This document shows positions 16,633 through 33,650 of a stretch of DNA of 64,000 bases, one piece after another. The translations under genes were made by a program, and so were the position numbers. The stretch comes from Acidobacteriaceae bacterium (lineage in GTDB: Bacteria > Acidobacteriota > Terriglobia > Terriglobales > Acidobacteriaceae). The stretch spans positions 8,438 to 72,437 of the forward strand of contig JANXYB010000114.1 of the NCBI GenBank assembly GCA_025350325.1, given 5' to 3'. The notes beneath the pieces were generated by a model, which did no database searches, was not told where the DNA came from, and saw only the letters and a list, made by a program, of their open reading frames with translations. Position 1 is the first letter of the stretch. Each line of letters starts with the position of its first letter.

Positions 16633-19600
16633 TTGCTTGGAGCAGGATTGGGTAAGACGTTCATTGAAATCGGCAAGTACGTTGCTCTGATGCTGCTGGC
16701 GGCCGGGTCATTGGTTGAGGCGCAGTCCCGCTTCGATGTGGAAGCGGTGCGCCTCAATAATCGCGGTGTGGCGCAGATGGGGCAGCAGTTCACTGAGAAA
16801 GCGGCACAGAGTTTTGCAGATGCATTAAAAAAAGACCCTAAACTTGCCCAGGCGGCCGTCAACGACGGCATTGCATTGATGACGTTGCAGAAGCTCGACG
16901 AGGCTAAGCAAGCGCTCAACGAAGCAATCGCACTCGATGCCAAGAGCGCACAAGCGTGGTACAACCTGGGTCTCGCGCAGCACGCGAACAACGAACTGGA
17001 TGCTGCGCTGGCCAGCTTCCAGCATGCCGTGAAGCTAGATCCCCGTGACGCGGACTCGCTGTATTTCGAAGGCGTCTGCTATCGAGAAATGAAGCAGTTT
17101 GACAAAGCCATTGAAGCGCTCAAGCAGGCGCTGGCGATCAACCCTCTGCACGCCTCTTCTGAATTTGCGCTGGCGCGCGTTCTGCAGGCTTCCGGCAATA
17201 AGGAAGATGCGAAAACCCATTTCAAACTTTTTCAGCACATGACGAGCACTAAGATTTCCGCAGCCATTGGATTGGCTTACGGAGAGCAGGGCCACTATTC
17301 AACGGTCACGCCCGTTGAGGAGCCGCAGACGCGTGAGCAGGGCATGATTCCGGTAAAGCTGGTGGCGCGGAGCATGATTGTTGACAAGCGCGGGTCAAGC
17401 GAAACGGGCGGCGCCTGCATGATAGACGCGACAGGTTCGGGGCAGATGGATTTGGTGCTTATGGAATCAGGTGCGCAAGCTATCCGCGTGCTTCATCGAC
17501 GTGGCGACGGGACGTTTGAAGACCTCGATGCGGAGGCATCCGGGCTGAAGGCAGCGGGTCATGCGGTGGCGTGCGCGGTGGGAGATTACGATGCCGATAA
17601 TCTGAATGATCTGGCCGTGGCGCTCGATGACAAGGTGCTACTGTTTCGCAATCTTGGAAAGGGAAAATTTCAAGATGTGACGGGGGAATCCGGGCTGGCC
17701 CCGCGCAATAACCCCGCAGGCATTACTTTTGTCGACTACGATCACGACGGCGATCTTGACCTGCTGTTGACGGGCGCACCCGGCAAAGAGGGTGAGACGC
17801 CCAACGTGCTGTGGCGCAACAACGGCAACAAGACTTTCACCGAGTGGACGGAACCGACTGGATTGGGAGGCAGCGGCAAGACGGCCGCCGCAATCCTTAC
17901 TGACTTTAATAATGATCGTGCTGTAGATATAGCAGTCACTAGCGACGGTGAGACGCCTCTGTTATTTGTCAATCCACGCGAAGGGAAATATCCCACGCAA
18001 GCTCTTTTTGAAAAAGAGAAACTGCCGCCGACGCTGGGAATTGCCGTGCTCGATTTCAATAAGGACGGCTGGATGGATATAGCGGTCACACACGCTGGCG
18101 CGCCGGGTCTTACACTATGGCGCAATGTCACCGGCCCGGAAAACATAGGGCGCAGATTTGAACGTGTAGCATTGCCGCTCAACGGTGTGTCGCGCGGATG
18201 GGGCGTGACCCCGATCGATATAGATAATGACGGATGGATCGACCTGGCTGCGATCGTAGACACCAGTGCAGGGCCGCGCGTGAAGGTGCTGCGCAACCGG
18301 GGAGACGGCAGCTTTGAAGACGTGAGTCATGCGCTGGGGCTGGACAGCGTGGTGCTGCACGCGCCGCGCGGACTGATTGCGGCAGATGTGGATGGCGACG
18401 GTGCGGCGGACTTGATTGTGACGCAACTCAACGCACCGCCTGTCTTGCTGAAGAATGTAGGCGCGAACAAAAACCATTTTGTGCGGCTCGACTTGAGCGG
18501 CTACGCAGACAACAAAACTGCGTTGGGAGCGAAGGTTGAAGTTTTCGCTAACGGGCAATGGCAGAAGTGGGAACTGGCCGGAGCATCGGGATATCAGACG
18601 CAGGCGCCGCCGCAGCTTCTTGTCGGACTCGGTAAGGCTGAAGGGATCGACCTGCTGCGTATTTTGTGGCCAACGGGAGTTTTGCAGGATGAGATTGATT
18701 TGCCGCACACGCCAACGATTGCGATGAAAGAGGCAGACCGGCGCGGTAGTTCGTGCCCGGTGTTGTTTGCTTGGGATGGGCATAAATACAGGCTCGTGAC
18801 TGACATCATCGGCGCAGCGGTGGTCGGGCACTGGTTCACGCCGACACGCCGTAATACACCCAACCCGGGCGAATGGATCAAGGTTGACGGCGAAAAGCTT
18901 GCCGCGGTCGATGGCAAGATGAGCCTGCGTTTTATCGAGCCGATGGAAGAGGTCAACTACATCGATCAGTTGCGATTGGTGGCGGTGGACCATCCTGACA
19001 GCGCAGAGGTCAATCCGGATGAGCGGTTCCTCGATGATCCGCCGTTTGCTTCGGGACGCGTGGTTGCATCGGCTGGGGCACGGCTGCCTCGGGGCGCGTG
19101 GGACGGTGACGGGAACGACGTGCTCGATCAGTTGAGTCGCAGCGATCACAAATTCGCCAGCGGATTCACACCGACGCCCTATGATGGCATTGCGAATGTG
19201 CATGCGCTGACGCTTGATTTAGGCGACGTGCGCGAGGGAGCGCCCCTGCGCCTGCTGATGACGGGGTACGTGAATTATTTCAGCGCAACGTCTCTTTACG
19301 GTGCGTGGCAGGCGGGTATCAAGCCCATTTCACCCTACGTTGAGGCGCAGACGGCAGATGGCAAGTGGCAAAGAATTCCGGGCGAAGCCGGATTTCCGGC
19401 AGGGCTTGAACGCACCATCGTCGTGGACCTGAGCGGTAGGCTGCCTGCGCACACGCGGCGCATTCGGCTGGTGAGCAACCTTGAAATTTATTGGGACCAG
19501 GTGCTGATCGATAACAGTGCTGAAGCTGAGGCGCGAACCACCGAGCTGCCGCTGTCGGTCGCCCGAGAACACTTCCGCGGCTATCCCAAACAGATTGACG

Positions 19601-20091
19601 GTGCGAGCCCCGGTGACCTCGATTACGATTACGACCGAGTAAGTTTGACGGGGCCTTTTCAACATCAACGTGGCAACTACACGCGTATGGGCGATGTAAC
19701 TGAGCTGGTTAAGGGCATCGACGATCGCTATGCAATCTTTGGTAGCGGCGAAGAGATTGCGACGGAATTCGATGCCGTTCGACTCCCCGCGTTGCCGCCG
19801 CATTGGAAGCGCGATTACTTTTTTTACGCCAATGGATTTGTGAAGGACATGGATTGGTGGGATGCATCGCCATTCACGGTGTCGCAATTGCCGTTTCACA
19901 TGATGAGTGCATACCCTTATCCGGCCAGCGAACAGTTCCCTGAAGACGAAGACGCGATCAATTATCAGCTGAAGTGGAACGATCGCTTCGATACGGGCGA
20001 TCCGGTGCGTTCTTATCGGTTTGACTACCAACAGCTACCCGCCACGCCTGCGAATGACGCAACACCAGCATCGACCACGGCGCACCCATGA
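16633..20091 (+). CDS. Secreted TPR + FG-GAP (CRTAC1-like) + ASPIC/UnbV multidomain protein
   Basis: About five N-terminal TPRs, many DxDxDG Ca-binding loops (DYDADNLND, DYDHDGDLD, DFNNDRAVD, DFNKDGWMD, DIDNDGWID, DVDGDGAAD), UnbV motif (GYQTQAPPQLLVGLG...IRILWPTG) and a C-terminal domain beginning SSCPVLFAWDG. Start uncertain. Confidence 0.9.
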   Translation: MLGAGLGKTFIEIGKYVALMLLAAGSLVEAQSRFDVEAVRLNNRGVAQMGQQFTEKAAQSFADALKKDPKLAQAAVNDGIALMTLQKLDEAKQALNEAIALDAKSAQAWYNLGLAQHANNELDAALASFQHAVKLDPRDADSLYFEGVCYREMKQFDKAIEALKQALAINPLHASSEFALARVLQASGNKEDAKTHFKLFQHMTSTKISAAIGLAYGEQGHYSTVTPVEEPQTREQGMIPVKLVARSMIVDKRGSSETGGACMIDATGSGQMDLVLMESGAQAIRVLHRRGDGTFEDLDAEASGLKAAGHAVACAVGDYDADNLNDLAVALDDKVLLFRNLGKGKFQDVTGESGLAPRNNPAGITFVDYDHDGDLDLLLTGAPGKEGETPNVLWRNNGNKTFTEWTEPTGLGGSGKTAAAILTDFNNDRAVDIAVTSDGETPLLFVNPREGKYPTQALFEKEKLPPTLGIAVLDFNKDGWMDIAVTHAGAPGLTLWRNVTGPENIGRRFERVALPLNGVSRGWGVTPIDIDNDGWIDLAAIVDTSAGPRVKVLRNRGDGSFEDVSHALGLDSVVLHAPRGLIAADVDGDGAADLIVTQLNAPPVLLKNVGANKNHFVRLDLSGYADNKTALGAKVEVFANGQWQKWELAGASGYQTQAPPQLLVGLGKAEGIDLLRILWPTGVLQDEIDLPHTPTIAMKEADRRGSSCPVLFAWDGHKYRLVTDIIGAAVVGHWFTPTRRNTPNPGEWIKVDGEKLAAVDGKMSLRFIEPMEEVNYIDQLRLVAVDHPDSAEVNPDERFLDDPPFASGRVVASAGARLPRGAWDGDGNDVLDQLSRSDHKFASGFTPTPYDGIANVHALTLDLGDVREGAPLRLLMTGYVNYFSATSLYGAWQAGIKPISPYVEAQTADGKWQRIPGEAGFPAGLERTIVVDLSGRLPAHTRRIRLVSNLEIYWDQVLIDNSAEAEARTTELPLSVAREHFRGYPKQIDGASPGDLDYDYDRVSLTGPFQHQRGNYTRMGDVTELVKGIDDRYAIFGSGEEIATEFDAVRLPALPPHWKRDYFFYANGFVKDMDWWDASPFTVSQLPFHMMSAYPYPASEQFPEDEDAINYQLKWNDRFDTGDPVRSYRFDYQQLPATPANDATPASTTAHP

Positions 20092-21503
20092 CAGCGGTTG
20101 TGTTCGAGTCGGCGGTGCGGCAATTGGAAATGCTGCGCGCAGGTCAAATTTCAATCATCGAGTTGGCAGAAGAGCATATTCGGCAGATTGAGCGACTTGA
20201 TCCGGCGCTGAACGCATTCGCGGATTTCGATGCGGAACGCGTTCGCGCAGAAGCCCGGCGGCTGAGCGCTATGCACGATGGGCGCGGCCCGCTGCATGGC
20301 TTGCCGGTAACGGTGAAGTCATCGATTGCGGCGGCGGGATTCCGTTGCGAAATTGGCAGCCTGCTTCATAAAGGCGAGGTGCCGCGCGAAGACGCGGTAG
20401 TGGTGGCAAGACTGCGTGCGGCCGGGGCATTGATCCTGGGCACGACAAATTGTCCCGAATTCCTGATGGCCTATGAGACCGCGAACCTGTTGCATGGCCG
20501 GACGAACAATCCATGGGACGTGAGTCGGACGCCCGGCGGATCGAGCGGCGGAGAGGCGGCAGCGATTGCAGCGGGCATGTCGGCTGCGGGACTGGGAAGC
20601 GACAGTGGCGGATCGGTCCGCGTGCCCGCACACTTCACCGGCATCTGTGCGCTGAAGCCGACGCCCGGCAGGGTCCCCGGTCGAGGCCATTTGCCGCCAT
20701 GCGTAGGGCCCTTCGCTATCCTCGGCGCAGTTGGACCGATGGCGCGGACAATTGTCGATGTCACATTGATGTTTCGCACGCTTGGTGGCCACGATCTTGC
20801 GGATCCGGCAAGTGCGCCGGTGCAGTTTCGCGAACGTGATTTGAATGAACTGCGCTGCAATCGAGTCGGATTTTTTGAAGATGACGAGCTAGTCCCGGTG
20901 ACTGCTGAAACGCGGGCTGCTGTCAACGCTGCTGCTGCGGCACTGCGCGATGCCGGCTTCAGAGTGGAACGGTTCAGGCCGAGCACACTTGAGCGGTTGC
21001 GCAAGCTTTGGTGGAAGTTTTTTGTGCAATGCGGGGCAATGTTTTATGAGCCGGCAATTCGCGGCAAGCTGGATAAATTGAGTCCAATTTTCAATGAGTT
21101 TCTAGGTATAGCAGCGAGCGTGCCGCCATTGACCGCAACGCAGCTATTGGACGCGTGGGCCGAGTTGGACGTGCTGCGCGCCAAGACTCTCGAAGAGATG
21201 CGCGAGTATCCAGTGCTGCTTTGTCCTGTGGCCAGCGTCCCGGCGTTCCGTCATGGGGAGCGCTCGTGGAACGTCGATGGCCAAGTGGTTGACTACCTCG
21301 ATGCAGTACGCCACACCCAATGGTTCAACGGGCTCGCCGCGCCTGCTGTTGTGGTGCCTGTAAGTCGATCGCGGGATGGACTGCCGATTGGAGTGCAGAT
21401 CGTTGCACGGCCATTTGAAGATGAGACTGCGCTGGGGGTAGCGACCATTGTCGATGCGGCATTTGGGTACCGTGTACCACCGATCGCAGGTAATTCTTGT
21501 TAG
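20088..21503 (+). CDS. Amidase-signature family enzyme (Ser-cisSer-Lys triad)
   Basis: GPLHGLPVTVK, TPGGSSGGEAAA, LGSDSGGSVRVPAHFTG, GLPIGVQIV. ATGA overlap with the upstream gene. Confidence 0.93.
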   Translation: MTAVVFESAVRQLEMLRAGQISIIELAEEHIRQIERLDPALNAFADFDAERVRAEARRLSAMHDGRGPLHGLPVTVKSSIAAAGFRCEIGSLLHKGEVPREDAVVVARLRAAGALILGTTNCPEFLMAYETANLLHGRTNNPWDVSRTPGGSSGGEAAAIAAGMSAAGLGSDSGGSVRVPAHFTGICALKPTPGRVPGRGHLPPCVGPFAILGAVGPMARTIVDVTLMFRTLGGHDLADPASAPVQFRERDLNELRCNRVGFFEDDELVPVTAETRAAVNAAAAALRDAGFRVERFRPSTLERLRKLWWKFFVQCGAMFYEPAIRGKLDKLSPIFNEFLGIAASVPPLTATQLLDAWAELDVLRAKTLEEMREYPVLLCPVASVPAFRHGERSWNVDGQVVDYLDAVRHTQWFNGLAAPAVVVPVSRSRDGLPIGVQIVARPFEDETALGVATIVDAAFGYRVPPIAGNSC

Positions 21504-21677
21504 TGCTGATTGAAGCGCAGAATGCTAGCAGTTCGCGTTGTTGATCGACTTTATTCGCAGTCAAGATTCTGTCAAGCTCAACCATCACATACAAATATTT
21601 ATTACGCCGCTAAAAACGAAGTGGCAGGTGCGGCAGGAGGCTCATTGCTCACCTCAACCTTTGGATGGAGGCGTGCG

Positions 21678-22607
21678 ATGAGCGATCGCGGTATTCTGAC
21701 GCTTCCCCGGAATGGAGCGCAGAAGTTGCGCGATAGCTGGCATGATCGTTTTGCCGAAACGCCTGATGTTCTAAAGAGTCCCGAACTCGAACACACTGTG
21801 GTGCGGGTTTTGGATCTTGAGATTGGTGGCGAGGACTTCATCACCATGGCCGGGCCGTGTTCGGTCGAGACTGAAGCCGAACTCATAGCCACAGCAATTC
21901 ATGTACGCCGGGGCGGTGCGCGCATCCTGCGCGGCGGCGCGTTTAAACCGCGCAGTTCGCCCTATGCATTCCAAGGTCATGGTGTCAAAGGTTTGAAGAT
22001 GCTTGACCGCGCGCGCACGGAAAGCGGCCTGGCCATTGTCACCGAGGTCATGTCGGAAGACGATGTGCCGCTGGTAGCGGAATACGCCGATATTTTGCAG
22101 ATTGGCTCGCGCAGCATGGAGAATTACACGCTGCTTGCGGCGGCGGCACGCTCTGGCCGACCTATCTTGCTCAAGCGCGGCATGATGGCTACGGTGGCAG
22201 ATCTGCTGCGTTCGGCGCAGGTGGTCATAGATGCGGGAAATCCCAACGTCATTCTCTGCGAACGAGGCATTCGGACCTTCGACACATCGCTGCGCAATAC
22301 ATTTGATACGGGCGCCATCGCGCTGCTCAAGTACATTTCGCATCTCCCAATCATCGCCGACCCAAGTCACGCCGCCGGACATAGTGAGTTAGTGCCCGCA
22401 CTGGCCCGCGTCGGCATCGCGGCAGGAGCGGACGGGCTGATCGTTGAGGTGCATCCGAACCCTGCAAAGGCGTGGAGCGACGGCGAGCAGTCGCTCACGT
22501 TTGCTGAATTCGACGAGATGATGGCCTCTATTCAGCCATATATTTCACTGCGTGCAATGTCCCTAAGCCAGTCAGCTGACGCTCGGCCGATGGAGGCCGT
22601 TAGATGA
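21678..22607 (+). CDS. aroF: 3-deoxy-7-phosphoheptulonate (DAHP) synthase, type I-beta
   Basis: MAGPCSVE, RGGAFKPRSSPY, LQIGSRSMEN, LLKRG, LCERGIRTF, ADPSH, IVEVH, SDG. Start set at ATG 21678 behind a GGAGG RBS (309 aa). Confidence 0.93.
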   Translation: MSDRGILTLPRNGAQKLRDSWHDRFAETPDVLKSPELEHTVVRVLDLEIGGEDFITMAGPCSVETEAELIATAIHVRRGGARILRGGAFKPRSSPYAFQGHGVKGLKMLDRARTESGLAIVTEVMSEDDVPLVAEYADILQIGSRSMENYTLLAAAARSGRPILLKRGMMATVADLLRSAQVVIDAGNPNVILCERGIRTFDTSLRNTFDTGAIALLKYISHLPIIADPSHAAGHSELVPALARVGIAAGADGLIVEVHPNPAKAWSDGEQSLTFAEFDEMMASIQPYISLRAMSLSQSADARPMEAVR

Positions 22608-24010
22608 GGGTCTGTGCCAGTGTTCTGCGTGCCGTTGCCTGGGTTGCATTCCTTTTGCCGGTCTGCGGGTTCGCTCCTAATCCATCACAAAAGATTGGTA
22701 CGGATGTCATTGTGACGGCGGCGCTGGCATACGAACCTTTGGCTGCGATTCGGGGCGAGGAACGTTTTCCTAAAGGTGCGCAGCTTCTGTTGCTTCATGA
22801 CGGAAAAACGGAGCCGCTGCTCACGGACTTCGCAGCAACTGCGGACGCCAATGTTTCGTTCGATGCGCATAGGGTGTTGTTCTCTGGCAAGAAGAGGGTG
22901 ACCGATGCGTGGCAAATATGGGAACTCACGCTGCGAGATCATGATGTACGCCAGTTGACCGAAGGGCAGCAGGATGCAATTCGCCCCCTGTACCTGCCGG
23001 ATGGAAATATGGTGTATGCGCTGCGGACGCCGCAGGGATTCCAGTTGGAATCGGCAAAAATTGCCCTTACAGAAAATAGTGACGGTCAAAAGCCTGCGGG
23101 TACTCTTGCGGTTCTGCCGTTGACTTACTCGCAGGCTAGCGCGGTGCCGGCAGACGTTCTGGCGGATGGGCGCATTTTATTCGAGGCGGGTTTCCCGCTT
23201 GGGTCGGGTGCGGTACCGGAGATGTTTCTGGTTTACTCCGATGGATCGGGCGTTGAGTCTTATCGTTGCGATCACGGCACGGGAATGGTAGGCGGGCGGT
23301 GGGGCGGGAAACAATTGGCGTCGGGCGACGTGGTGTTCACGCACGGTGATTCGCTGGCGCGGTTTACCTCTCCGCTCGCACACGAGGAACGAATCGCTGC
23401 GCCTCACGCAGAGTATGCGGGAGCCATTATTGAAACAGCTTCAGGTGCGTGGCTTGTGAGTGCGCGGTCTACAAACAGCAGTCCTTATGCATTGAAGCTT
23501 TTTAAGCCGGGTGCAGTGGCGAGCCGAACGGTCTACGCGAGGGGTGAGAATGTAGTCGAACCGGTTCTGGTTGCGCCGCGCAATCGACCGCGTCGACATC
23601 CTTCAGCGCTGCACGAATGGGATTACGCCAACATGCTTGCACTCGATGCGCGGATCTCGCGCGATGGGCCACTGTCTGGTGTACCAGTCTCCGTTCGCCT
23701 TGAGATGCAGGATGCCGCAGGACGCGCGGTTGCGATGGGCACTGCGCCGGTCGAGAAAGACGGATCCTTCTTTGTTAAAGCACCTGCCGACAAGCCAATT
23801 CGCTTTGCGCTGCTCGATGGCAAAGGTGCAGTGCTGCGGCAGGAGCACGGATGGTTCTGGATTCGCCGCGGTGAGCAACGCATTTGCGTGGGTTGCCATG
23901 CGGGGCCTGAACGCGCCTCGGAAAATCGTGTGCCCGCCGTATTGCTTCGCACGACAACGGCTGTCGATCTAACTTCCGCCGTGCAGCATTCGCTATCGGG
24001 AGGCAACTGA
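22604..24010 (+). CDS. Secreted hydrazine synthase alpha-subunit-like protein (propeller + HZS_alpha middle domain, 1 CxxCH)
   Basis: Signal peptide; propeller start (LLTDFAATADANVSFDAHRVLFSG...WQIWEL...VRQLT); C-terminal GTAPVEKDGSF..APADKPIRFALLDGKG...WFWIRRGEQRICVGCH, with CVGCH at 23885-23899. ATGA overlap with aroF. The HZS similarity is recognised from memory. Confidence 0.82.
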   Translation: MRVCASVLRAVAWVAFLLPVCGFAPNPSQKIGTDVIVTAALAYEPLAAIRGEERFPKGAQLLLLHDGKTEPLLTDFAATADANVSFDAHRVLFSGKKRVTDAWQIWELTLRDHDVRQLTEGQQDAIRPLYLPDGNMVYALRTPQGFQLESAKIALTENSDGQKPAGTLAVLPLTYSQASAVPADVLADGRILFEAGFPLGSGAVPEMFLVYSDGSGVESYRCDHGTGMVGGRWGGKQLASGDVVFTHGDSLARFTSPLAHEERIAAPHAEYAGAIIETASGAWLVSARSTNSSPYALKLFKPGAVASRTVYARGENVVEPVLVAPRNRPRRHPSALHEWDYANMLALDARISRDGPLSGVPVSVRLEMQDAAGRAVAMGTAPVEKDGSFFVKAPADKPIRFALLDGKGAVLRQEHGWFWIRRGEQRICVGCHAGPERASENRVPAVLLRTTTAVDLTSAVQHSLSGGN

Positions 24011-24011
24011 A

Positions 24012-25694
24012 ATGGTGTATCGCACTCTTCTCTTACTTTTGAGTATTGCTCCCGTCATCGCGGCTCAGACCGTGACCACGGCACCACCGATCGCGCCGCA
24101 CACGCTGCCCTCGAGCGCAGCTAAATCCACCGACGCTGTAATTCGCTTTGAAGATGCAAGCGACAAGGCGGGCATCAACTTTACGCACAGCATTGGCTCG
24201 CGCCAGCTTGGTTCACTGCTTGAGGGCACGGGCGCAGGCTGCGTCTGGATCGATTACAACAATTCAGGCCTGCCCTCGTTATATGTTGTGAATGGGCGGC
24301 CGCTCGACGACTCGGTGCATCCCTTTCCGCTGAAAGATAAACCCGCAACACCGCCGCATAATCATCTTTATCGCAATGATGGCAACGGTCATTTCACTGA
24401 TGTGACGGACGCGGCCGGTCTCAATCCCGACATGTATTCGGTGGCGGTTACGGCGGCAGATTATGACAACGATGGATTTGTCGATCTGCTCGTGACGGGC
24501 TACGGCAAAACGATTCTCTACCACAATGATGGCAATGGGCACTTCACAGATGTAACTGCCAAGGCCGGTATAAGCGTCGATGGTTGGGCGATCAGTTCGA
24601 CCTGGCTGGACTACGACAAAGATGGTTGCGTTGATCTTTTTGTTGGTCGCTACGTGAAATTCGATCCCAAGTACCGCGCGTTTTATGCGGCGGATAACTA
24701 TCCGGGACCGCTCGATTACGAGGGTGAAACCAATCGTCTCTATCACAACAATTGCAACGGCACATTCACCGACGTTACCGATAAATCAGGCATCGGCGCA
24801 TTTGTGGGGCGGACAATGGGCGTGACGGCGGCGGATTTTGACGGCGATGGATGGGACGACATCTACGTGGCCAACGATCGCACCGAAAATTTTCTATTCC
24901 GCAACAAGCACGACGGAACATTTGAAGAAGTTGGCAACGACACGGGTACTGCTTTTGGACAGAATGGCGAGTCCACCTCGTCGATGGGGCCGATATTCGC
25001 GGATTTTGAAGGACGAGGCGTGCTCGACCTCTGGGTGACCGATGGGCACTATAACCGGATGTTGCACAACGCCGGCAAGCAGGGTTTCGAAGACATGGGC
25101 GCGTCGAACGGCGTGTCCCAAACCAACGCGCAGTATGTAAGTTGGGGCACCGGCGTCTACGACTTCGACAATGACGGGCTCCTCGACATTCTTATTTTTC
25201 ACGGTGGCCTAATCCACATGATCCCGCAGGAACATACGCTGTTTCACGGGCTGGGGGATAGGCGATTCGCGGACACGTCTCGCACCGCAGGGCCGGTGCT
25301 GAGTGCGCGCACCGTCGCGCGGGGCGCATGTTTTGCCGACTATGACAATGACGGCAAGGTCGACGCGTTCCTCGTAAACCTGGGCGCTAAGGGAACGCTG
25401 GTGCATAACGTTTCTACGGGCTCGGGGCATTGGGTAGCGATCAAGCTTGTGGGCAGTAAAAGCAACCGGGATGGGATTGGTGCGCGCGTGGAAGTGTTTG
25501 CGGGCAGCAAGCACTGGACGGCTGAGCGAGTTGCATCTTCGGGATATCTTTCGCAGGATGACAGCCGGTTGCATTTTGGATTAGGCGCGGCAAGTGCCAT
25601 CGACAAAATCATTGTGCGTTGGCCGAGCGGTCGCGAGCAGACGCTGGAAACGCAGGGCCTGGACCGAGTTCTCACGATAGAGGAGCCGAAGTGA
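24012..25694 (+). CDS. Secreted CRTAC1-family (FG-GAP repeats + ASPIC/UnbV) protein
   Basis: Signal peptide, DYDNDGFVD, DYDKDGCVD, DFDGDGWDD, DFDNDGLLD and DYDNDGKVD loops, NRDGIGARV, GYLSQDDSRLHFGLG, VRWPSG. Starts 1 nt after the upstream stop. Confidence 0.93.
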   Translation: MVYRTLLLLLSIAPVIAAQTVTTAPPIAPHTLPSSAAKSTDAVIRFEDASDKAGINFTHSIGSRQLGSLLEGTGAGCVWIDYNNSGLPSLYVVNGRPLDDSVHPFPLKDKPATPPHNHLYRNDGNGHFTDVTDAAGLNPDMYSVAVTAADYDNDGFVDLLVTGYGKTILYHNDGNGHFTDVTAKAGISVDGWAISSTWLDYDKDGCVDLFVGRYVKFDPKYRAFYAADNYPGPLDYEGETNRLYHNNCNGTFTDVTDKSGIGAFVGRTMGVTAADFDGDGWDDIYVANDRTENFLFRNKHDGTFEEVGNDTGTAFGQNGESTSSMGPIFADFEGRGVLDLWVTDGHYNRMLHNAGKQGFEDMGASNGVSQTNAQYVSWGTGVYDFDNDGLLDILIFHGGLIHMIPQEHTLFHGLGDRRFADTSRTAGPVLSARTVARGACFADYDNDGKVDAFLVNLGAKGTLVHNVSTGSGHWVAIKLVGSKSNRDGIGARVEVFAGSKHWTAERVASSGYLSQDDSRLHFGLGAASAIDKIIVRWPSGREQTLETQGLDRVLTIEEPK

Positions 25695-27595
25695 ATTGGC
25701 CCATTCACAGGTGGCTGCAGCCCGCAGTCGTCGCGGTCCTGGCGGCGGTGGCTGCGGTCCTGTTGGGCGTCAGCGTGGGGCACGGCGATGCTGCCCATGC
25801 GGCAGCGATGCCTGTTACGGGAGAGGTTCTCAACTACGCGTCGCCAGTAGAGCTGCTGTTTTCGCCTGACGGTGCGCGGCTTTACGTGCTCTGCCAACAG
25901 AGCGACGAAGTCAGAGTGCTCGATGCAAAAAGCGATGCGGCGATCAAAAGCATTACCGTGGGCCGCGTCCCGCGCGGATTCTCGTTGTCGGCAAGCGGCG
26001 ATCGCCTGTTTGTGGCGAATTCGTGGGACGATACTGTTTCAATCATCGATACGAAATCACTCGCGATAACGGCGACATGGCCGGTAGGGTCTGAGCCTTC
26101 GAGCATCGTTGCGGATCGCGAAGGCAAGCGTTTGTTTGTTGCCAATCGGATATCGAACGATGTGGCTGTGCTCGATGCAAACACCGGCGTTGAGGAGAAG
26201 CGGCTGGCGGCAGGGCGCGGGGCAAGTTATATAACTCCGTCGCCTGATGGGAGCCGGCTTTATGTCACGCATGTTTATCCCAACCCGACCCCCCATCGTA
26301 CCGCGCCTGAATCGGAAATCACGGTGATCGATACAGCGCGGGCGGTTGTCGTAGACAGAATTATTCTGCATAACATCGCGCATGCCTTTCACGTGGCTTT
26401 CTCTGCCGACGGGCGGTTGGGCGTTGCCGCCGAAATGCATCCAAAAAATCTGATTCCGCTCGCACACCTTGAGCACGGCGGAGCTTTTGCAGACACGTTG
26501 ATGCTGTTTGGTGCGGATGTTGGCAAGCCGGTGGAGATACCTCTCGATGAGTTGGAACGCTATGCTGTGCGGCCGTTCGGTGTGGCAATCATGGCTGATA
26601 AATCGCGCATCTTCGTTACTTGCGAAGGCTCGGAACTCGTGACTGTGCTCGATGTGCAAAGGCTTCTGCGTTTTGCGCATACACATCGCGGTCCGAATGC
26701 ACAAGATCTTTCAGCGAGCGCTGATTATGTGATCGCGCACATCGCCGTCGGTCATGATCCGCGTGGTATGGCAATGAAGCACGATGGGCATAGCTTGCTG
26801 GTTGCGAATCGGCTGGACGACACGATCAGCGTTATCGATACGCGAACCAATCGTCTCGCATCTACGATTGCGCTGGCAGGGCCGAAGAAATTGTCGGTGC
26901 TGCGCCACGGTGAGCAAACGTTCTATACAGCGCGGCATTCCTTTCAAGGTCAGATTGGCTGCGCCAACTGTCATATCGATTCAACGTTTGACGGACTGAC
27001 GTGGGATTTGGAGCCAGACGGGTTTGGTCGCGACATTGTCGACAATCGGCCAATTGAAGACGTCAAGGATACCGAGCCTTTCAAGTGGAACGGCGGCAAT
27101 CCAAACCTTCCGACCGAATGCGGACCGCGGACTGAGAAATATTTTTGGCGCGCGGAGAATTACGACGACCTTACGCTTACCGACCTCGTTGTTTACATCC
27201 GCAGCTTGCAGGCGCGACCGAATCGCTGGCGTCGTCCGATAAGTGAATCGACGCCGGCGCAGGAGCGCGGCAAAGATCTGTTCACGCGAGACAAAGACAA
27301 GTTTGGAAACGCAATTCTGGAAACCAATCGCTGCGTGTTTTGCCATAGCGGAAAAAAAGGCACCAACCAGAAGTCCTTTGACGTGGGAACGAAGAAGTGG
27401 ACCGACAACACGGGCCCGCTTGATACGCCGCAACTGACCAACATCGGAATCACCGGGCCTTATCTTCATGACGGCTCAGCGGCCACACTCGAGCAGATAT
27501 GGACAGTATTCAACCCCGAAGACAAGCATGGGCGCACCAACGATTTAACCAAGGACGAATTGAACGACCTGATCGAATATCTGAGGACGCGATGA
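25691..27595 (+). CDS. Secreted YVTN beta-propeller fused to a di-haem cytochrome c (CcP/MauG/HZS-gamma fold); HZS beta-gamma-like
   Basis: GTG start overlapping the upstream stop, signal peptide, YVTN repeats (LFVANSWDDTVSIID, LFVANRISNDVAVLD, LLVANRLDDTISVID), CANCH at 26960-26974, CVFCH at 27332-27346, DTPQL..GPYLHDGSAATL, KHG. Confidence 0.88.
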   Translation: MNWPIHRWLQPAVVAVLAAVAAVLLGVSVGHGDAAHAAAMPVTGEVLNYASPVELLFSPDGARLYVLCQQSDEVRVLDAKSDAAIKSITVGRVPRGFSLSASGDRLFVANSWDDTVSIIDTKSLAITATWPVGSEPSSIVADREGKRLFVANRISNDVAVLDANTGVEEKRLAAGRGASYITPSPDGSRLYVTHVYPNPTPHRTAPESEITVIDTARAVVVDRIILHNIAHAFHVAFSADGRLGVAAEMHPKNLIPLAHLEHGGAFADTLMLFGADVGKPVEIPLDELERYAVRPFGVAIMADKSRIFVTCEGSELVTVLDVQRLLRFAHTHRGPNAQDLSASADYVIAHIAVGHDPRGMAMKHDGHSLLVANRLDDTISVIDTRTNRLASTIALAGPKKLSVLRHGEQTFYTARHSFQGQIGCANCHIDSTFDGLTWDLEPDGFGRDIVDNRPIEDVKDTEPFKWNGGNPNLPTECGPRTEKYFWRAENYDDLTLTDLVVYIRSLQARPNRWRRPISESTPAQERGKDLFTRDKDKFGNAILETNRCVFCHSGKKGTNQKSFDVGTKKWTDNTGPLDTPQLTNIGITGPYLHDGSAATLEQIWTVFNPEDKHGRTNDLTKDELNDLIEYLRTR

Positions 27596-28686: not shown

Positions 28687-29187
28687 ATGATTGCATTTTC
28701 AGAAATTCTAGATACGATCGCGCACGCGCCTATCATAAAGCGCGCGATGACCAACCACGGAGTACTTAACGAGGCTTACGCCTATGCCAAGCCAAGCTCG
28801 TTTTCGCGTGGCATGCGCATTGATTTGAACGGGCTCACCATCCTGCTCATCTCGGGTACAGCGTCGATTGACGAGAACGGTGTAAGCGTTCACGTCGGCG
28901 ACTTTCGCGCGCAGATGAAGCGCACGCTCGAGAACATCACAGGTCTGCTCGCAAGCGAAGGATGCACCTGGCACGATATCGTGCGCACCAGCTGCTACCT
29001 CCGCGACATCGATCGTGACTACGATGCATTCAACGACGAGCGAACCGCCTTCTTTACGGCGCAGGGTCTTGATCCGCTACCTGCCTCAACGGGTATCGAG
29101 GCGCACTTGTGCCGGCCTGAGTTGCTTATTGAGATCGAGGCGATTGCGATGTTTCGCACGGAGAAAGCTGCTAGCACCAAGGAGTAA
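28687..29187 (+). CDS. Rid/YjgF-superfamily protein resembling the catalytic domain of FkbO/Hyg5 chorismatases
   Basis: PSSFSRG, LLISGTASI, HVGDFRAQ..TLENI, CYLRD, LCRPELLIEIEAIA; no signal peptide; AGGAG RBS. Confidence 0.8.
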   Translation: MIAFSEILDTIAHAPIIKRAMTNHGVLNEAYAYAKPSSFSRGMRIDLNGLTILLISGTASIDENGVSVHVGDFRAQMKRTLENITGLLASEGCTWHDIVRTSCYLRDIDRDYDAFNDERTAFFTAQGLDPLPASTGIEAHLCRPELLIEIEAIAMFRTEKAASTKE

Positions 29188-29192
29188 GTGCA

Positions 29193-31211
29193 ATGGGCAA
29201 GGGACTGGTACTGCTAGCGGTTTGTGGTTTTACTTTGAGCACGGTATATGGGGCAGCTCAGGATACGACGAAAGGTGCGGGCGCATGTGAGTGTGGTGCG
29301 CACCCGCCCGGGCCGCCGCGTGACCGCTCGGTGACTCCGTACGCTGGCGAGCCTGCCGATCTGAGCCCTTATTCAAAGTTTGCCGCACCTTACGACCTCA
29401 ACTATACCCATCCTAATATTTATGCTGGCGCCTCGCGGGACTTGCCTCAGCCTGAAAATCTGACTGAAGTGCGTATCGGGTTTTTCGGACCGATCGAGCA
29501 CAATCCCGAACAGGTTTTTGGATTGCGTATGTTGCATGGTGCACAATTAGCGGTCGAAGAAGCCAACGCACGCGGTGGTTACGGCGGCAAGCCATTCAAG
29601 CTGATGCTGCATAACGATTACGACAATTGGCAGGCAAAGACGGTATACGGCGATGATCGTTCGACCGACCCGACCATCTGGGGCTCCGCTTCAAACGAAG
29701 TGGTGAAGATGGTTTATGACGATCAGGACTGGGCCGTGTTTGGCTCCATCAGTTCCGAGTCAACGCATATCGCTCTGCGCGTTGCGCTTCGCGCGGAGAT
29801 TCCCATCGTCAACTCCGCATCGACCGATCCCACGATCCCGGAAACATACATCCCGTGGTACTTCACCAACCTGCAGGATGATCGCGTACAGGATTTAACG
29901 CTGGCCCGTCATATCTTCACCGAGTCGGGCCTGAAGCGCGTGGCATTGCTGAGAATCAACAGTCGCTACGGGCGCTTTGGCGTTATCAAGTTTCGCGACG
30001 CGGCCAGGCGGCTCGGGCATCCCGTGGTGATCGAGCAGAAATTTTTGCCCGGCGACACGGACTACACGCGCGAACTCAAAATTATTCAATCGTCGCGCGC
30101 AGATGCCATCGTTTTGTGGACCGACGAGATTCCGGCGGCGAACATTCTCAAGCAGATGAGAGCGCTGGGGATGAAGCAGCGCGTTTTCGGTTCGTATCGT
30201 ACGCTGGGGCCTGAATTGCTCGCTGAGGCTGGCCCTGCTGCAGAGGGTTTTGAGGCTGTGTTTCCATACGACCCCACGCGGAAAGATTCGCGCTGGCTCG
30301 ACTTTAACAGCCGATTCGACGCTCGATTTCAAGAGCAACCTGAGCAGTTTGCTGCGCTGGCCTACGATGCAATGAACGCACTGCTCAGCTCCATTTGCAA
30401 GGCTGGACTCAACCGCGCGCGCATTCACGACGCGCTGGCCAGTATCGAGCAATACGATGGCGTGACCGGGCACATGATGTTCGATCCCAATCAAAAGAAC
30501 GTCGCGCCGATGTATATGGGGATAGTCCACAACGGAGCAATTACGTATCGCGTAGCAAGCATGGAGAAGCCGGGTACAGCTGACCCGGCAGCGATCGCTT
30601 TTCCTGCTGTATCAATGGGTGCAGACAGTGGTGCTCCCAAGCCCCAGCAAGCTCGCGCTCCAGCGACGCCGTACGCGCGGGTGGGGGAGGGGGGCGTTGC
30701 CATTGCGGGTCCGCATAGTGCGGATGCGCCGGATGGTGCAATGCGCGTGGTGCTGTTTGGACCGCAAGCGGTGAAGATTGCCGAGTCGGTCGAAATGCGC
30801 GCGCAACTTGCCGGCGCTGCCGCAAAAGGACGTGTCTGGGTTGTACTGCCGGTTGCGAGCAACCAGAACTGGGGCGCGGCTTCAACCCAATTAGTGCATG
30901 CGCTCATGGATCTACACGCGCTGGCCATCCTCGCGCTCGATCGTGAGTCAGCGCACCTCGCAGAGCAATTGGCGCTCAAGACGTTTGTGCCTGTTGTTGC
31001 GCTAAGCGATGACAAGACGCTGACTTCGACGAACGTGCCATGGATTTTTCGCCTGCCGTCTAGCACCGAACCCGTAGCGGCCTTGCGCCTGATTCAAACT
31101 GCATCGCAAAAGAGCGGCGTTAACGCGGACCGGCTGAGAGACGTGCTGGCATCAGGCGATGCAATCGATGGGCTGGCGTTCTCGTCGACGGGCGAGGTAA
31201 AGCTGCCGTGA
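29193..31211 (+). CDS. Secreted type-1 periplasmic binding protein (Leu/Ile/Val-like) with N-terminal CxCGAH segment and an extra C-terminal half-domain
   Basis: Signal peptide, VRIGFFGP, GAQLAVEEANARGG, AVFGSISSESTH, AALAYDAMNAL, YDGVTGHMMFD. The C-terminal ~170 aa repeat the first PBP lobe (LAEQLALKTFVPVV..NVPWIFRL). Confidence 0.82.
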   Translation: MGKGLVLLAVCGFTLSTVYGAAQDTTKGAGACECGAHPPGPPRDRSVTPYAGEPADLSPYSKFAAPYDLNYTHPNIYAGASRDLPQPENLTEVRIGFFGPIEHNPEQVFGLRMLHGAQLAVEEANARGGYGGKPFKLMLHNDYDNWQAKTVYGDDRSTDPTIWGSASNEVVKMVYDDQDWAVFGSISSESTHIALRVALRAEIPIVNSASTDPTIPETYIPWYFTNLQDDRVQDLTLARHIFTESGLKRVALLRINSRYGRFGVIKFRDAARRLGHPVVIEQKFLPGDTDYTRELKIIQSSRADAIVLWTDEIPAANILKQMRALGMKQRVFGSYRTLGPELLAEAGPAAEGFEAVFPYDPTRKDSRWLDFNSRFDARFQEQPEQFAALAYDAMNALLSSICKAGLNRARIHDALASIEQYDGVTGHMMFDPNQKNVAPMYMGIVHNGAITYRVASMEKPGTADPAAIAFPAVSMGADSGAPKPQQARAPATPYARVGEGGVAIAGPHSADAPDGAMRVVLFGPQAVKIAESVEMRAQLAGAAAKGRVWVVLPVASNQNWGAASTQLVHALMDLHALAILALDRESAHLAEQLALKTFVPVVALSDDKTLTSTNVPWIFRLPSSTEPVAALRLIQTASQKSGVNADRLRDVLASGDAIDGLAFSSTGEVKLP

Positions 31212-31313: not shown

Positions 31314-33410
31314 CTAAGGCAAGTAGTAGCGGAAGGACGTCCAAATCATATTGTCGATTCCCTTGGCGCCGATGCCTGATGCTCCAGACCATCCCTCGCG
31401 CACGGCATAGCCGTATTGAACGCTCTGGCGCAGGCGACCGCGATCACCCTTGTAGATGTCATACCAGTAACCGCCTGTGATCTCTTGCACGTCGCGGTTT
31501 TGCGCACCGCAGGACCCGCCGGGGTAATAGCCTGTCGAACTGCCGTTGAAGCCGGGTGTAGTGGTTGTGTTGCAAGCGGAATTGCCGAGTAGCCTCGAGC
31601 CGTAGCCGACAGCAGCTGCCGTCGGTGCGCCCCAGTGGCCGCCCCACGTGCCTCCTGCTGCAAGTTGTGCCGCAGTGGGCTTGGCAACGCATTGCGCCGC
31701 CAGGGTGAATCCAGTCGGGCAGAAGGTGGCTGTAGGGCCGCCGAGCGTAGTGGCCAGCGGGTTTGCATAGTCGGCGCGGCTCGCATAGTCCCCGCCGTAG
31801 TTCATGTAAATCGCGAGGCGAGGCGTTGGGTTGATTTCAACTGTAAGCAGGCCAGAGAGGTTGTGAATCGGCGCCAATCCGCCCCCGCTTTTCGCGGTAA
31901 CGTCGGCTAGAGTTGAGTCGCCGTAGCGTCCCATGCCGGTTCCGTAGAGGGCCTTGGCTCCCACGATCAGCTTGTCTTTGATTACTGGAACGCGGAAGCT
32001 GCCGCCGAAGCCGCCAAGTACGATGCTGTCGGAGAACGCGCCTGCCGTGGACGAAGCCGGAGCAACCACTGCGCCGGTTTCGATGTCTTTTTGGCCGCCG
32101 TATCGCACGGTGTCGTTGCTCACGCCGGGATAGATGGTTTCATGCGCAAATCGACCGATGCCCAGGATCTCATAGTGTCCCCAGCCCGGGTCGAATGCGA
32201 TTTTGGCAAGAATGTCAGGCGCTCTGTTAAAGGAAAGGTTAGCGATGTTAGTGTTTGCGACCAAGGTGTTATACACGGGCAGATACGTCGTTGACCCGGG
32301 CACCTGCGTGTAGTTTTGCACATAGGTCGTGGTGGCACTGGCGCTGATCGCCGCGTTGTAGTTACCGCCATTGTTGCCGGCGCTGCCGAGCACCGCGTAG
32401 GGGGTGTTGCCCGCCAGCGTAGCGGTGTAGAGGAGCTGCGGGTTCTCAACTGCGATGCCGAAAGCCGCGTGCTTGGCGGTTTTGGTGACGCGGAATCCGT
32501 ATTGCCGCGTCCACACAAAGCCGGGGACGTAATTCGGATCGATGGTCTGCGGGGCCATGATATCGCCGGAAATATTGGAGATGCCCTTTTTGTCTTCGGT
32601 GGCAAGCGACCATAACTGACCACCGGTAAAGGCCCAGTGATTATTGGTTTCAGCCTGACCCCAGATGACGCGCTGACGCAACACATAGCTATTCGATTGA
32701 TTGTTGTTGGACGAGACGCCGGTGCCAAGCCAATCTGCCTCGTAATAGCCTCGTAGTGTGCCCCAATCGGTTTTGCCCTCGGCCATGAGGGAGATGCGCG
32801 AGTGACGACCGCTGCCATAGAACTCGCCCAGAGAATACGCATCCGCATGTTCGTAAGGAATCGCATTGAACGCAGTCGGAGTGTCGCCGCCGGTGGCTTT
32901 GGTGCGATATATCGTCTCGCCCGCCAAGTAACCGCCCGGAGTCAAACCGATTCCCTTGTAGTGGAGCACGCTCGGATTATTTATTGCCTTCTTCAGTGCC
33001 GAAGTTTCGTCGGAGATGCTGGATACGATCGTGGTGTTGACCGCCTTCATGTCAGTCACGGTGGACTGCAGAGTGCTTACGGCAGCGGTGTTTTCAGTAG
33101 TCGCTTGCTGTTGCGATGTGGCGTCGGCCTCAGCCTTGGCCGCTGCGGTCTGCGCGTCTGCCGCAGTTTGCTGCGCCTGTTTCAACTGCGCGTCTTTAGC
33201 TGACAGATCGGTCTTCAAACTGTCGATCTGTAGTTGAAACTCTTGACGCAGAGATTCAATCTGTTCTTGAACAGTGGGCTTGGGAGGCTGCTTCTTTCTG
33301 GCGGTAACGTGTTTTCTCGCAGGCGCGGGGGGATCGCCGGCATAGGCAAACGGGCTGACAAGACTGGCTGCCACAATTGCAGCGACAGCAGTTTTGAGTT
33401 TGTAGTTCAT
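31314..33410 (-). CDS. Outer-membrane porin-like beta-barrel with N-terminal coiled coil
   Basis: Start reset to MNYKLKT (ATG 33410, GAGG RBS); signal peptide, coiled-coil segment, amphipathic beta-strands, C-terminal WTSFRYYLP. Confidence 0.75.
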   Translation of the reverse strand: MNYKLKTAVAAIVAASLVSPFAYAGDPPAPARKHVTARKKQPPKPTVQEQIESLRQEFQLQIDSLKTDLSAKDAQLKQAQQTAADAQTAAAKAEADATSQQQATTENTAAVSTLQSTVTDMKAVNTTIVSSISDETSALKKAINNPSVLHYKGIGLTPGGYLAGETIYRTKATGGDTPTAFNAIPYEHADAYSLGEFYGSGRHSRISLMAEGKTDWGTLRGYYEADWLGTGVSSNNNQSNSYVLRQRVIWGQAETNNHWAFTGGQLWSLATEDKKGISNISGDIMAPQTIDPNYVPGFVWTRQYGFRVTKTAKHAAFGIAVENPQLLYTATLAGNTPYAVLGSAGNNGGNYNAAISASATTTYVQNYTQVPGSTTYLPVYNTLVANTNIANLSFNRAPDILAKIAFDPGWGHYEILGIGRFAHETIYPGVSNDTVRYGGQKDIETGAVVAPASSTAGAFSDSIVLGGFGGSFRVPVIKDKLIVGAKALYGTGMGRYGDSTLADVTAKSGGGLAPIHNLSGLLTVEINPTPRLAIYMNYGGDYASRADYANPLATTLGGPTATFCPTGFTLAAQCVAKPTAAQLAAGGTWGGHWGAPTAAAVGYGSRLLGNSACNTTTTPGFNGSSTGYYPGGSCGAQNRDVQEITGGYWYDIYKGDRGRLRQSVQYGYAVREGWSGASGIGAKGIDNMIWTSFRYYLP

Positions 33411-33650
33411 CGGGCCTCTTTTTCCTCTCGGATCAGGTTGAATGATGCGACGCTCATTACGCTCGGAGCGCCATGATGCTCCGTTGCTGCAGGAGTCTCT
33501 GACATGAAACCGTGTTGAATAGTCTGCTTGTGTGCCTTGAATCGGTGTGTGATGAGATAGCGCTATGCAAGCAGGACTTTCCTCAATACTTCTGATTCCC
33601 AGCATCGCAGAGTCAGGTTAATATTTGACTAATTCACACAGTTTTAACAA

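Follow-up and report, generated by a model that had tools for sequence, protein, structure and literature searches.

The 64,000-nucleotide stretch of an Acidobacteriaceae genome analysed here, referred to as the window (assembly GCA_025350325.1, contig JANXYB010000114.1, positions 8,438 to 72,437 of the forward strand), contains a gene at 25691-27595 whose product has subunits beta and gamma of hydrazine synthase (HZS) from anaerobic ammonium-oxidising (anammox) bacteria as its best relatives in both sequence and fold. We consider it probable that the product is a fused beta-gamma-like subunit belonging to a periplasmic, HZS-like haem complex that is non-anammox and does not make hydrazine. 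The di-haem domain of this protein carries an equivalent of the extra cysteine of HZS gamma (gamma-Cys165) in a pocket that has also kept residues of peroxidase type.

Two papers from 2025 are at odds on HZS-like genes outside the Brocadiia. In a cold-seep survey, HzsA-like genes in ten phyla, Acidobacteriota included, were taken as anammox potential (PMC11828985), whereas Hagglund et al. (Genome Biol Evol; PMC12758564) argued for a lack of the catalytic residues and concluded that the homologues are not hydrazine synthases. For a soil acidobacterium, the locus described here settles the matter of the gamma-type active site at the level of single residues.

Sequence, fold and phylogeny of the beta-gamma-like protein

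The gene and the elements of its product, including the di-haem domain that resembles cytochrome c peroxidase (CcP) and MauG, are as follows.

25691-27595, forward strand: HZS beta-gamma-like fusion gene, 634 aa (matches to NCBIfam hydrazine_BC, 5C2V_B and 5C2V_C)
25706-25780, forward strand: N-terminal hydrophobic helix, residues 6-30, putative Sec signal peptide or membrane anchor (helix in the AlphaFold2 model; sequence WLQPAVVAVLAAVAAVLLGVSVG)
25838-26860, forward strand: seven-bladed YVTN beta-propeller, residues ~50-390, HZS-beta-like (Foldseek match to 5C2V_B; TIGR02276 repeats)
26960-26974, forward strand: CANCH motif of haem I, C424/C427/H428, aligned with gamma-Cys102/Cys105/His106 (invariant columns in the alignments)
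27086-27088, forward strand: Trp466 in FKWNG, at the position of gamma-His144 and of the inter-haem Trp of CcP/MauG (alignments; PMC12758564)
27116-27136, forward strand: distal-side motif E476-C477-G-P-R480-T481-E482, with C477 aligned to gamma-Cys165, R480 to Arg167, T481 to Asp168 and E476 to the distal-Gln column of CcP
27332-27346, forward strand: CVFCH motif of haem II, C548/C551/H552 (invariant columns)
27527-27529, forward strand: His613 in DKHG, presumed distal ligand of a bis-His haem II

The gene starts with GTG at 25691, within the stop of the upstream CRTAC1-like gene (GTGA overlap). This start fits the homologues, many of which are 633-635 aa long and cover 97-100% of the query. 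From its N-terminal helix the protein is predicted to be exported. It consists of the propeller and a di-haem domain of CcP/MauG descent (gamma-type, residues ~395-634), in which the CxxCH motifs at residues 424 and 548 are the only two, with no additional haem motif. The blocks quoted in the original prediction, which had been made from the sequence alone, are all in the translation (CANCH, LTWDLEPDGFG, TECGPRTEKYFWRAENY, LVVYIRSL, PAQERG, CVFCH, FDVGT, DTPQL, YLHDGSAATL and DKHGRTNDLTKDELNDLIEYL). The HzsC blocks given there for comparison match real HzsC from anammox loci, except that Kuenenia has YIRAL where Jettenia and Scalindua have YIRSL.

Sequence searches against the PDB with phmmer matched propeller residues 50-385 to HZS beta (5C2V_B, E 4e-31) and the di-haem domain to HZS gamma (5C2V_C, E 2e-22), with weaker matches to MbnH-like and CcP chains (E 1e-7 to 1e-3); identity to anammox HZS beta/gamma is ~24-29%. 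The top functional matches in NCBIfam were likewise hydrazine_BC, hydrazine_beta and hydrazine_gamma, although all three curated cut-offs were missed by a wide margin (NF052342/NF052340/NF052341: 181 vs 1250, 141.6 vs 560 and 82.1 vs 625 bits), and the MbnH and MauG models scored 38 and 24 bits. In a full-length AlphaFold2 model (predicted local distance difference test, pLDDT, 88.7; predicted template-modelling score, pTM, 0.88) the best PDB match by Foldseek was 5C2V_B, with a target-normalised TM of 0.88 and a root-mean-square deviation of 2.7. This search was dominated by the propeller, WD40 and G-beta proteins following 5C2V_B, and the gamma domain was therefore modelled separately (pLDDT 83.3). 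Its best fold match was 5C2V_C (E 1.8e-14, TM 0.76), followed by MbnH 6E1C, YhjA, Nitrosomonas CcP, MacA, MauG and BthA (E 1e-8 to 1e-4). The fused beta-gamma architecture that had been proposed is borne out by these sequence and fold matches to 5C2V, which far exceed what chance would give.

A gamma-domain tree was built from 35 diverse HZS-like proteins, 8 anammox HzsC/HzsBC proteins translated from anammox loci and, from Acidobacteriota genomes, 30 canonical members of PF03150. The HZS-like sequences group with HzsC in a single clade (100 in the Shimodaira-Hasegawa-like approximate likelihood ratio test, SH-aLRT), apart from CcP/MauG (support 100). Within that clade HzsC lies nested among the HZS-like sequences, and the family does not branch within the ordinary CcP/MauG clades.

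A second locus of Candidatus Scalindua sp. RBC_AMX3 (L068) has an HzsC match of only 62% identity, followed by an hzsA-like open reading frame (ORF). No intact hzsB or hzsC ORF of at least 250 aa was found at this second locus, which may be a degraded or divergent copy.

The haem I pocket

The alignment register around the extra cysteine was the same in phmmer and in two MAFFT L-INS-i alignments, where T-E-C-G-P-R-T-E of the query pairs with R-V-C-G-(gap)-R-D-P of HzsC; against the PDB chain, phmmer places 'ECGpRTE' on 'VCG-RDP' of 5C2V_C. With the HzsC chain offset of 39 applied, the aligned residues are Cys165, Arg167, Asp168 and His144, in agreement with the numbering used in PMC12758564 and PMC12607021. 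The lone Cys codon noticed earlier at 27119-27121 is TGC and encodes Cys477, which is the sole Cys in residues 390-634 besides C424/C427 and C548/C551. Its proposed homology to gamma-Cys165 is upheld by this register.

Residues were then counted by column in 8 HzsC, 35 diverse HZS-like and 30 canonical CcP sequences. At the Cys165 column, Cys is present in 8/8 HzsC and 24/35 HZS-like proteins (with Asp in 4, Val in 4, and Glu, Ala and Phe in one each) and in none of the 30 CcPs, of which 25 have Ala. Asp168 is found in all eight HzsC and in 0/35 HZS-like proteins (Phe, Ala, Thr, Leu and others), the window protein having Thr481; this column was left unscored in canonical CcP since the stretch is deleted in HZS-type proteins and the column does not carry over. 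The earlier suspicion that the distal aspartate is not kept was therefore correct. The His144 column is His in 8/8 HzsC, and Trp in 32 of the 35 HZS-like proteins and 27 of the 30 CcPs, here Trp466. At the distal-Gln column of CcP, HzsC has Val (8/8), HZS-like proteins have Gln (23) or Glu (7, among them Glu476 of the window protein), and CcP has Gln (29/30). The segment of CcP with the catalytic Glu, NPxEM, is deleted in HZS and the HZS-like family alike, and the anammox-specific insertions of 10 aa and ~35 aa, around gamma-His144 and after haem II, are absent from the window protein in the alignment.

Judged by these aligned residues, the active-site side of haem I is a hybrid, with the Cys and Arg of HZS, the Trp of peroxidases, an acid at the Gln position and no Asp168. 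The original prediction had overlooked the residues of peroxidase type, namely Trp466 in place of gamma-His144 and Glu476 where CcP/MauG have their distal Gln. It had CGPR replace the CGRD of HzsC, and the loss of the Asp stands, but an insertion of one residue is the better reading of the motif: Arg167 is kept as Arg480 and Asp168 becomes Thr481, followed by Glu482. Thr481 is the most parsimonious equivalent of Asp168, with Arg480 as the alternative. In HZS, Asp168 is 4.08 A away from the iron of haem gamma-I, forms a hydrogen bond to the axial water and takes up a proton on reduction (PMC12607021), and its absence is therefore functionally meaningful.

The His of DxHG is invariant (35/35 HZS-like, 8/8 HzsC), and CcP has no counterpart (gap or varied residues). 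HZS haem gamma-II is bis-His (PMC12607021), and by analogy His613 is presumed to be a ligand of haem II; the invariance is compatible with the bis-His haem II and the conserved KHG foreseen for this protein. The Lys of DKHG, in place of Met in DMHG, does not distinguish the window protein since it is also found in some anammox HzsC (L042 and L058; Brocadiia JP1 and RIFCSPLOWO2_12_FULL_50_35).

An ordinary di-haem CcP or MauG-type enzyme fused to a propeller, with Cys477 as an incidental free thiol, is an unlikely explanation. The protein does reach the gathering score of PF03150 (35.3 vs 25.6 bits; 25.1 and below the cut-off in the six-frame search of the genome), keeps the Trp between the haems as well as an acid or amide in the column of the distal Gln, and has sister-clade relatives with Ala at the Cys column. 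The PF03150 match, however, covers residues 545-624 only, and canonical Acidobacteriota CcPs score 67-201 bits compared to 25-35 bits for the HZS-like proteins. Moreover, the Met or Tyr ligand is replaced by the invariant His, the Cys is invariant among close homologues and the gene is coupled to an HZS-alpha-like gene (both described below). The separation in the tree and the deleted catalytic segment led us to reject this explanation.

Conservation and origin of the extra cysteine

In the protein's own clade (64-100% identity; Terracidiphilus and Telmatobacter names), ECGPRTE is invariant in the 151/151 close homologues in which the motif was found, and it is also present in a genome of the same genus (L088). 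A profile search with alignment A1 retrieved almost only this same Acidobacteriaceae clade and added 37 near-identical sequences. In other families of Acidobacteriota, QCG(P/A/V/I)R is found in nearly all proteins of the decahaem (clade I-type) and trihaem (clade III-type) kinds. The Cys165 column requires at least five changes on the tree, and one representative of a 50% cluster with 69% identity to the window protein has Phe (P0122). This distribution points to an extra Cys that is ancestral to HzsC and the main HZS-like clade, strongly kept in the window lineage and dispensable in others. It further suggests that HZS inherited its triple haem attachment instead of inventing it for hydrazine chemistry.

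The third link of haem gamma-I in HZS is to a porphyrin methyl group. Gamma-Cys165 is one of three cysteines covalently bound to this haem, whose iron carries water or hydroxide (PMC12607021), and from the aligned position Cys477 probably makes the same third thioether. Several points weigh against our account of the pocket and of this bond. The thioether is formed post-translationally and cannot be read from sequence. In 11/35 diverse homologues the Cys column holds a different residue (Asp, Glu, Ala, Phe or Val), and a sister Acidobacteriaceae lineage with the same operon (representative L091, G062:C3, 6885-8984) is without the Cys, having QDGPR in 99/120 and QAGPR in 21/120 members, with Gln instead of Glu before the Asp or Ala; the third link is therefore dispensable for the family and not essential. 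The placement of the gap in CG(P)R is not unique, such that Arg480 instead of Thr481 could occupy the Asp168 site, and model confidence over residues 481-490 is moderate (pLDDT ~65).

Where Asp or Glu occupies the Cys column, it might be esterified to the haem in the manner of mammalian peroxidases and CYP4. As an obligatory link this was rejected given Ala in 21/120 of the sister clade, and the ester survives as a low-probability reading.

Alternatively, Cys477 could be un-cross-linked and serve as sixth axial ligand or as a redox-active thiol or persulfide at haem I, in a sulphur- or thiol-directed enzyme. Haems with His/Cys ligation occur in TsdA and SoxAX. The position of Cys477, one residue after the CcP distal-pocket Gln and hence on the distal side, and its standing as the only free Cys of the di-haem domain agree with such a role. 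In the solved homologue, however, this Cys is bound covalently and the iron carries water or hydroxide (PMC12607021), the Asp, Glu and Ala substitutions in relatives are unfit for an obligatory ligand, and the module holds no sulphur-metabolism genes; we give this alternative only a slim chance against a thioether-bound Cys477.

Proposed function

In the preferred reading, that of a non-anammox HZS-like beta-gamma subunit, electrons would enter or leave via the surface-exposed bis-His haem II (His552/His613) and cross the conserved Trp466 to haem I (His428), the distal side of which would be open or water-bound. Cys477, one residue after the peroxidase distal-Gln position, would sit at the haem edge and probably carry the same third thioether as gamma-Cys165. 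The distal pocket would be lined by Glu476/Arg480/Thr481 instead of Val164/Arg167/Asp168, and the proton-delivery chemistry would therefore differ from the reduction of NO to hydroxylamine in HZS. The likeliest job would be to reduce or oxidise a small N- or O-species and hand over towards the alpha-like protein's haem, which has canonical His ligation, in the setting of a multi-propeller periplasmic complex. A reaction different from that of HZS, as suggested in the original prediction, is a sensible expectation and agrees with Hagglund et al. 2025.

The gene cluster

The genes surrounding the beta-gamma-like gene are listed below.

16633-22607, forward strand: upstream co-directional genes (TPR-CRTAC1, amidase and extra DAHP-synthase paralogue), individually:
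16633-20091, forward strand: TPR, FG-GAP and UnbV/ASPIC protein, 1152 aa, upstream of the module
20088-21503, forward strand: amidase-signature enzyme, coupled by ATGA to the 1152-aa TPR protein
21510-22607, forward strand: DAHP-synthase paralogue, forming one co-directional block with the haem module
22604-24010, forward strand: HZS-alpha-like gene, 468 aa, one CxxCH (PF18582, E 1.6e-16; 5C2V_A, E 7e-10)
24012-25694, forward strand: CRTAC1-like FG-GAP/ASPIC-UnbV secreted protein, between the alpha-like and beta-gamma-like genes (domains, synteny, PMC12758564)
27592-28674, forward strand: Reg_prop beta-propeller, its ATG overlapping the beta-gamma stop (ATGA); adjoins the beta-gamma gene in 13/14 genomes
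28687-29187, forward strand: Rid/YjgF-fold protein with weak similarity to FkbO/Hyg5 chorismatase (E 1.3e-8)
29193-31211, forward strand: LivK-type periplasmic binding protein, 672 aa (Peripla_BP_6 at residues 92-446; one or two copies in 13/14 loci)

The beta-gamma-like gene is the third of four translationally coupled genes, preceded by the genes of the alpha-like protein, a propeller with a single haem, and of the CRTAC1-like protein, and followed by the Reg_prop propeller. The cluster holds the only PF18582 match and the only CcP-type (PF03150) match of the genome. A homologue was present in 14/201 sampled Acidobacteriota genomes, including 2/4 of the same genus, and the distribution is therefore patchy. 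[quoted passage not shown] The alpha-like/CRTAC1/beta-gamma/Reg_prop module is thus conserved across Acidobacteriota.

The amidase and TPR-CRTAC1 pair also lies upstream of the module in L088 and L091. A Rid-like ORF was found in the fetched stretch of 8/13 module loci, beside the module in about six, and the DAHP-synthase paralogue in six; Rid-fold and DAHP-synthase genes recur near the module in several distant Acidobacteriota families. The genome has five members of PF00793, among which the DAHP-synthase gene of the window scores lowest and is therefore an extra copy. No permease or ATPase genes adjoin the LivK-type binding-protein gene. Its product has an unassigned C-terminal stretch of ~225 aa beyond Peripla_BP_6, and other genomes have two separate binding-protein genes there. 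In L091 (8855-10712), a pair of overlapping ORFs (337 and 323 aa) stands for the CRTAC1-like gene, which could reflect a frameshift, an assembly error or a pseudogene. Downstream on the reverse strand of the window (31314-33605) lies an ORF of 763 aa without Pfam match. Its product is coiled and rich in Ala/Gln towards the N-terminus and rich in Gly/Tyr towards the C-terminus, near which it ends in an aromatic residue, and it may be an outer-membrane beta-barrel.

The partner alpha-like protein bears on the possibility that the locus encodes a genuine hydrazine synthase in an acidobacterium with anammox potential, which is how HzsA-like genes in ten phyla were read in the cold-seep survey (PMC11828985). 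The co-location of alpha-, beta- and gamma-like parts and the Cys165 equivalent are what such an enzyme would have. In the alignment with HZS alpha, however, in which Tyr591 ligates haem alpha-I, the alpha-like protein is gapped by 2 aa at Ser590/Tyr591 and lacks the domain of haem alpha-II. It scores 56 bits with the NCBIfam HZS alpha model against a cut-off of 800, and the beta-gamma-like protein is also far short of its own cut-offs. Asp168 and His144 are not kept, the anammox-specific inserts are missing, the gene order is reversed and the same negative conclusion was reached in PMC12758564. A genuine hydrazine synthase is exceedingly improbable and was rejected on the NCBIfam cut-offs and the residue columns.

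Significance

An ancestral third Cys, the absence of Asp168, His144 and the anammox inserts, and the retention of the peroxidase-type Trp and Gln/Glu together support not counting these clusters as hydrazine synthases. The module is found in thousands of database proteins. A close homologue with 81% identity occurs in Telmatobacter sp. DSM 110680, a strain with a culture-collection number, which makes the chemistry of the module experimentally approachable.

One may speculate further, and we do so with considerable doubt, that the extra Cys predates anammox and that a catalytic haem tethered at three points serves as a functional part of a two-site haem machine that is periplasmic, widespread and non-anammox. 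Its components would be the alpha-like, CRTAC1, beta-gamma and Reg_prop proteins together with orphan binding proteins of LivK type, partnered by Rid, amidase and DAHP synthase, and in aerobic soil Acidobacteria it would perform a hitherto unrecognised transformation of a small N compound (hydroxylamine, NO or an amide- or amine-derived intermediate). Lineages with Asp or Glu at the Cys column could use an ester link to the same haem substituent.

Comparison with known systems

Non-anammox clusters of HZS homologues were described by Hagglund et al. 2025 (PMC12758564), who divided them into clades I-III by the number of extra haems and reported the order alpha, FG-GAP, beta-gamma with downstream binding proteins, Trp at His144 and a missing alpha-Tyr591; Terracidiphilus proteins are included in their match tables. 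The architecture and our own tree of database representatives suggest that the window protein is a clade II-type member of this family. As in the published clade II clusters, the alpha-like gene is followed by FG-GAP/CRTAC1 and the fused beta-gamma-like gene with ABC-type binding proteins downstream, the beta-gamma protein has no extra N-terminal haem motif and has Trp at the gamma-His144 position, and the short alpha-like protein has one haem and the 2-aa Ser590/Tyr591 gap. The Reg_prop, Rid, DAHP-synthase and amidase partners of the window locus, by contrast, are undescribed there. A database representative with four extra CxxCH motifs at the C-terminus instead of the N-terminus of an HZS-like beta-gamma protein (P0144) falls outside clades I-III as described.

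A cysteine at gamma-Cys165 was already known for clade I homologues, to which the report of this residue is confined, and Asp168 is not discussed (PMC12758564). The aligned sequences extend the Cys477 equivalent to clade II- and clade III-type proteins, with lineage-specific replacement by Asp, Glu, Ala or Phe.

The anammox enzyme (Kuenenia stuttgartiensis, PDB 5C2V; beta and gamma fused in Scalindua) shares with the window protein the seven-bladed propeller and the CcP-like di-haem domain. Both also have an additional Cys that follows the first haem domain, along with Arg167, a YIRSL helix, an FDTP..YxHDG block and the His of DxHG. The anammox enzyme differs in that Asp168, His144 and Val164 correspond to Thr, Trp and Glu in the window protein, where the 10-aa and ~35-aa inserts are absent; in addition, the partner alpha of the window locus is without Tyr591 and haem alpha-II, and the gene order there is reversed.

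With di-haem CcP, MauG and MbnH (PF03150; 1IQC, 2VHD, 3L4M, 6E1C) the window protein has in common the two-domain di-haem fold (TM 0.6-0.7), the inter-haem Trp and the distal-Gln column, occupied by Glu in the window protein and by Gln in most of its relatives. Unlike these enzymes it has no NPxEM segment with the catalytic Glu, carries Cys where CcP has Ala and belongs to a separate clade of the tree, and its haem II is probably ligated by His/His as opposed to His/Met or His/Tyr.

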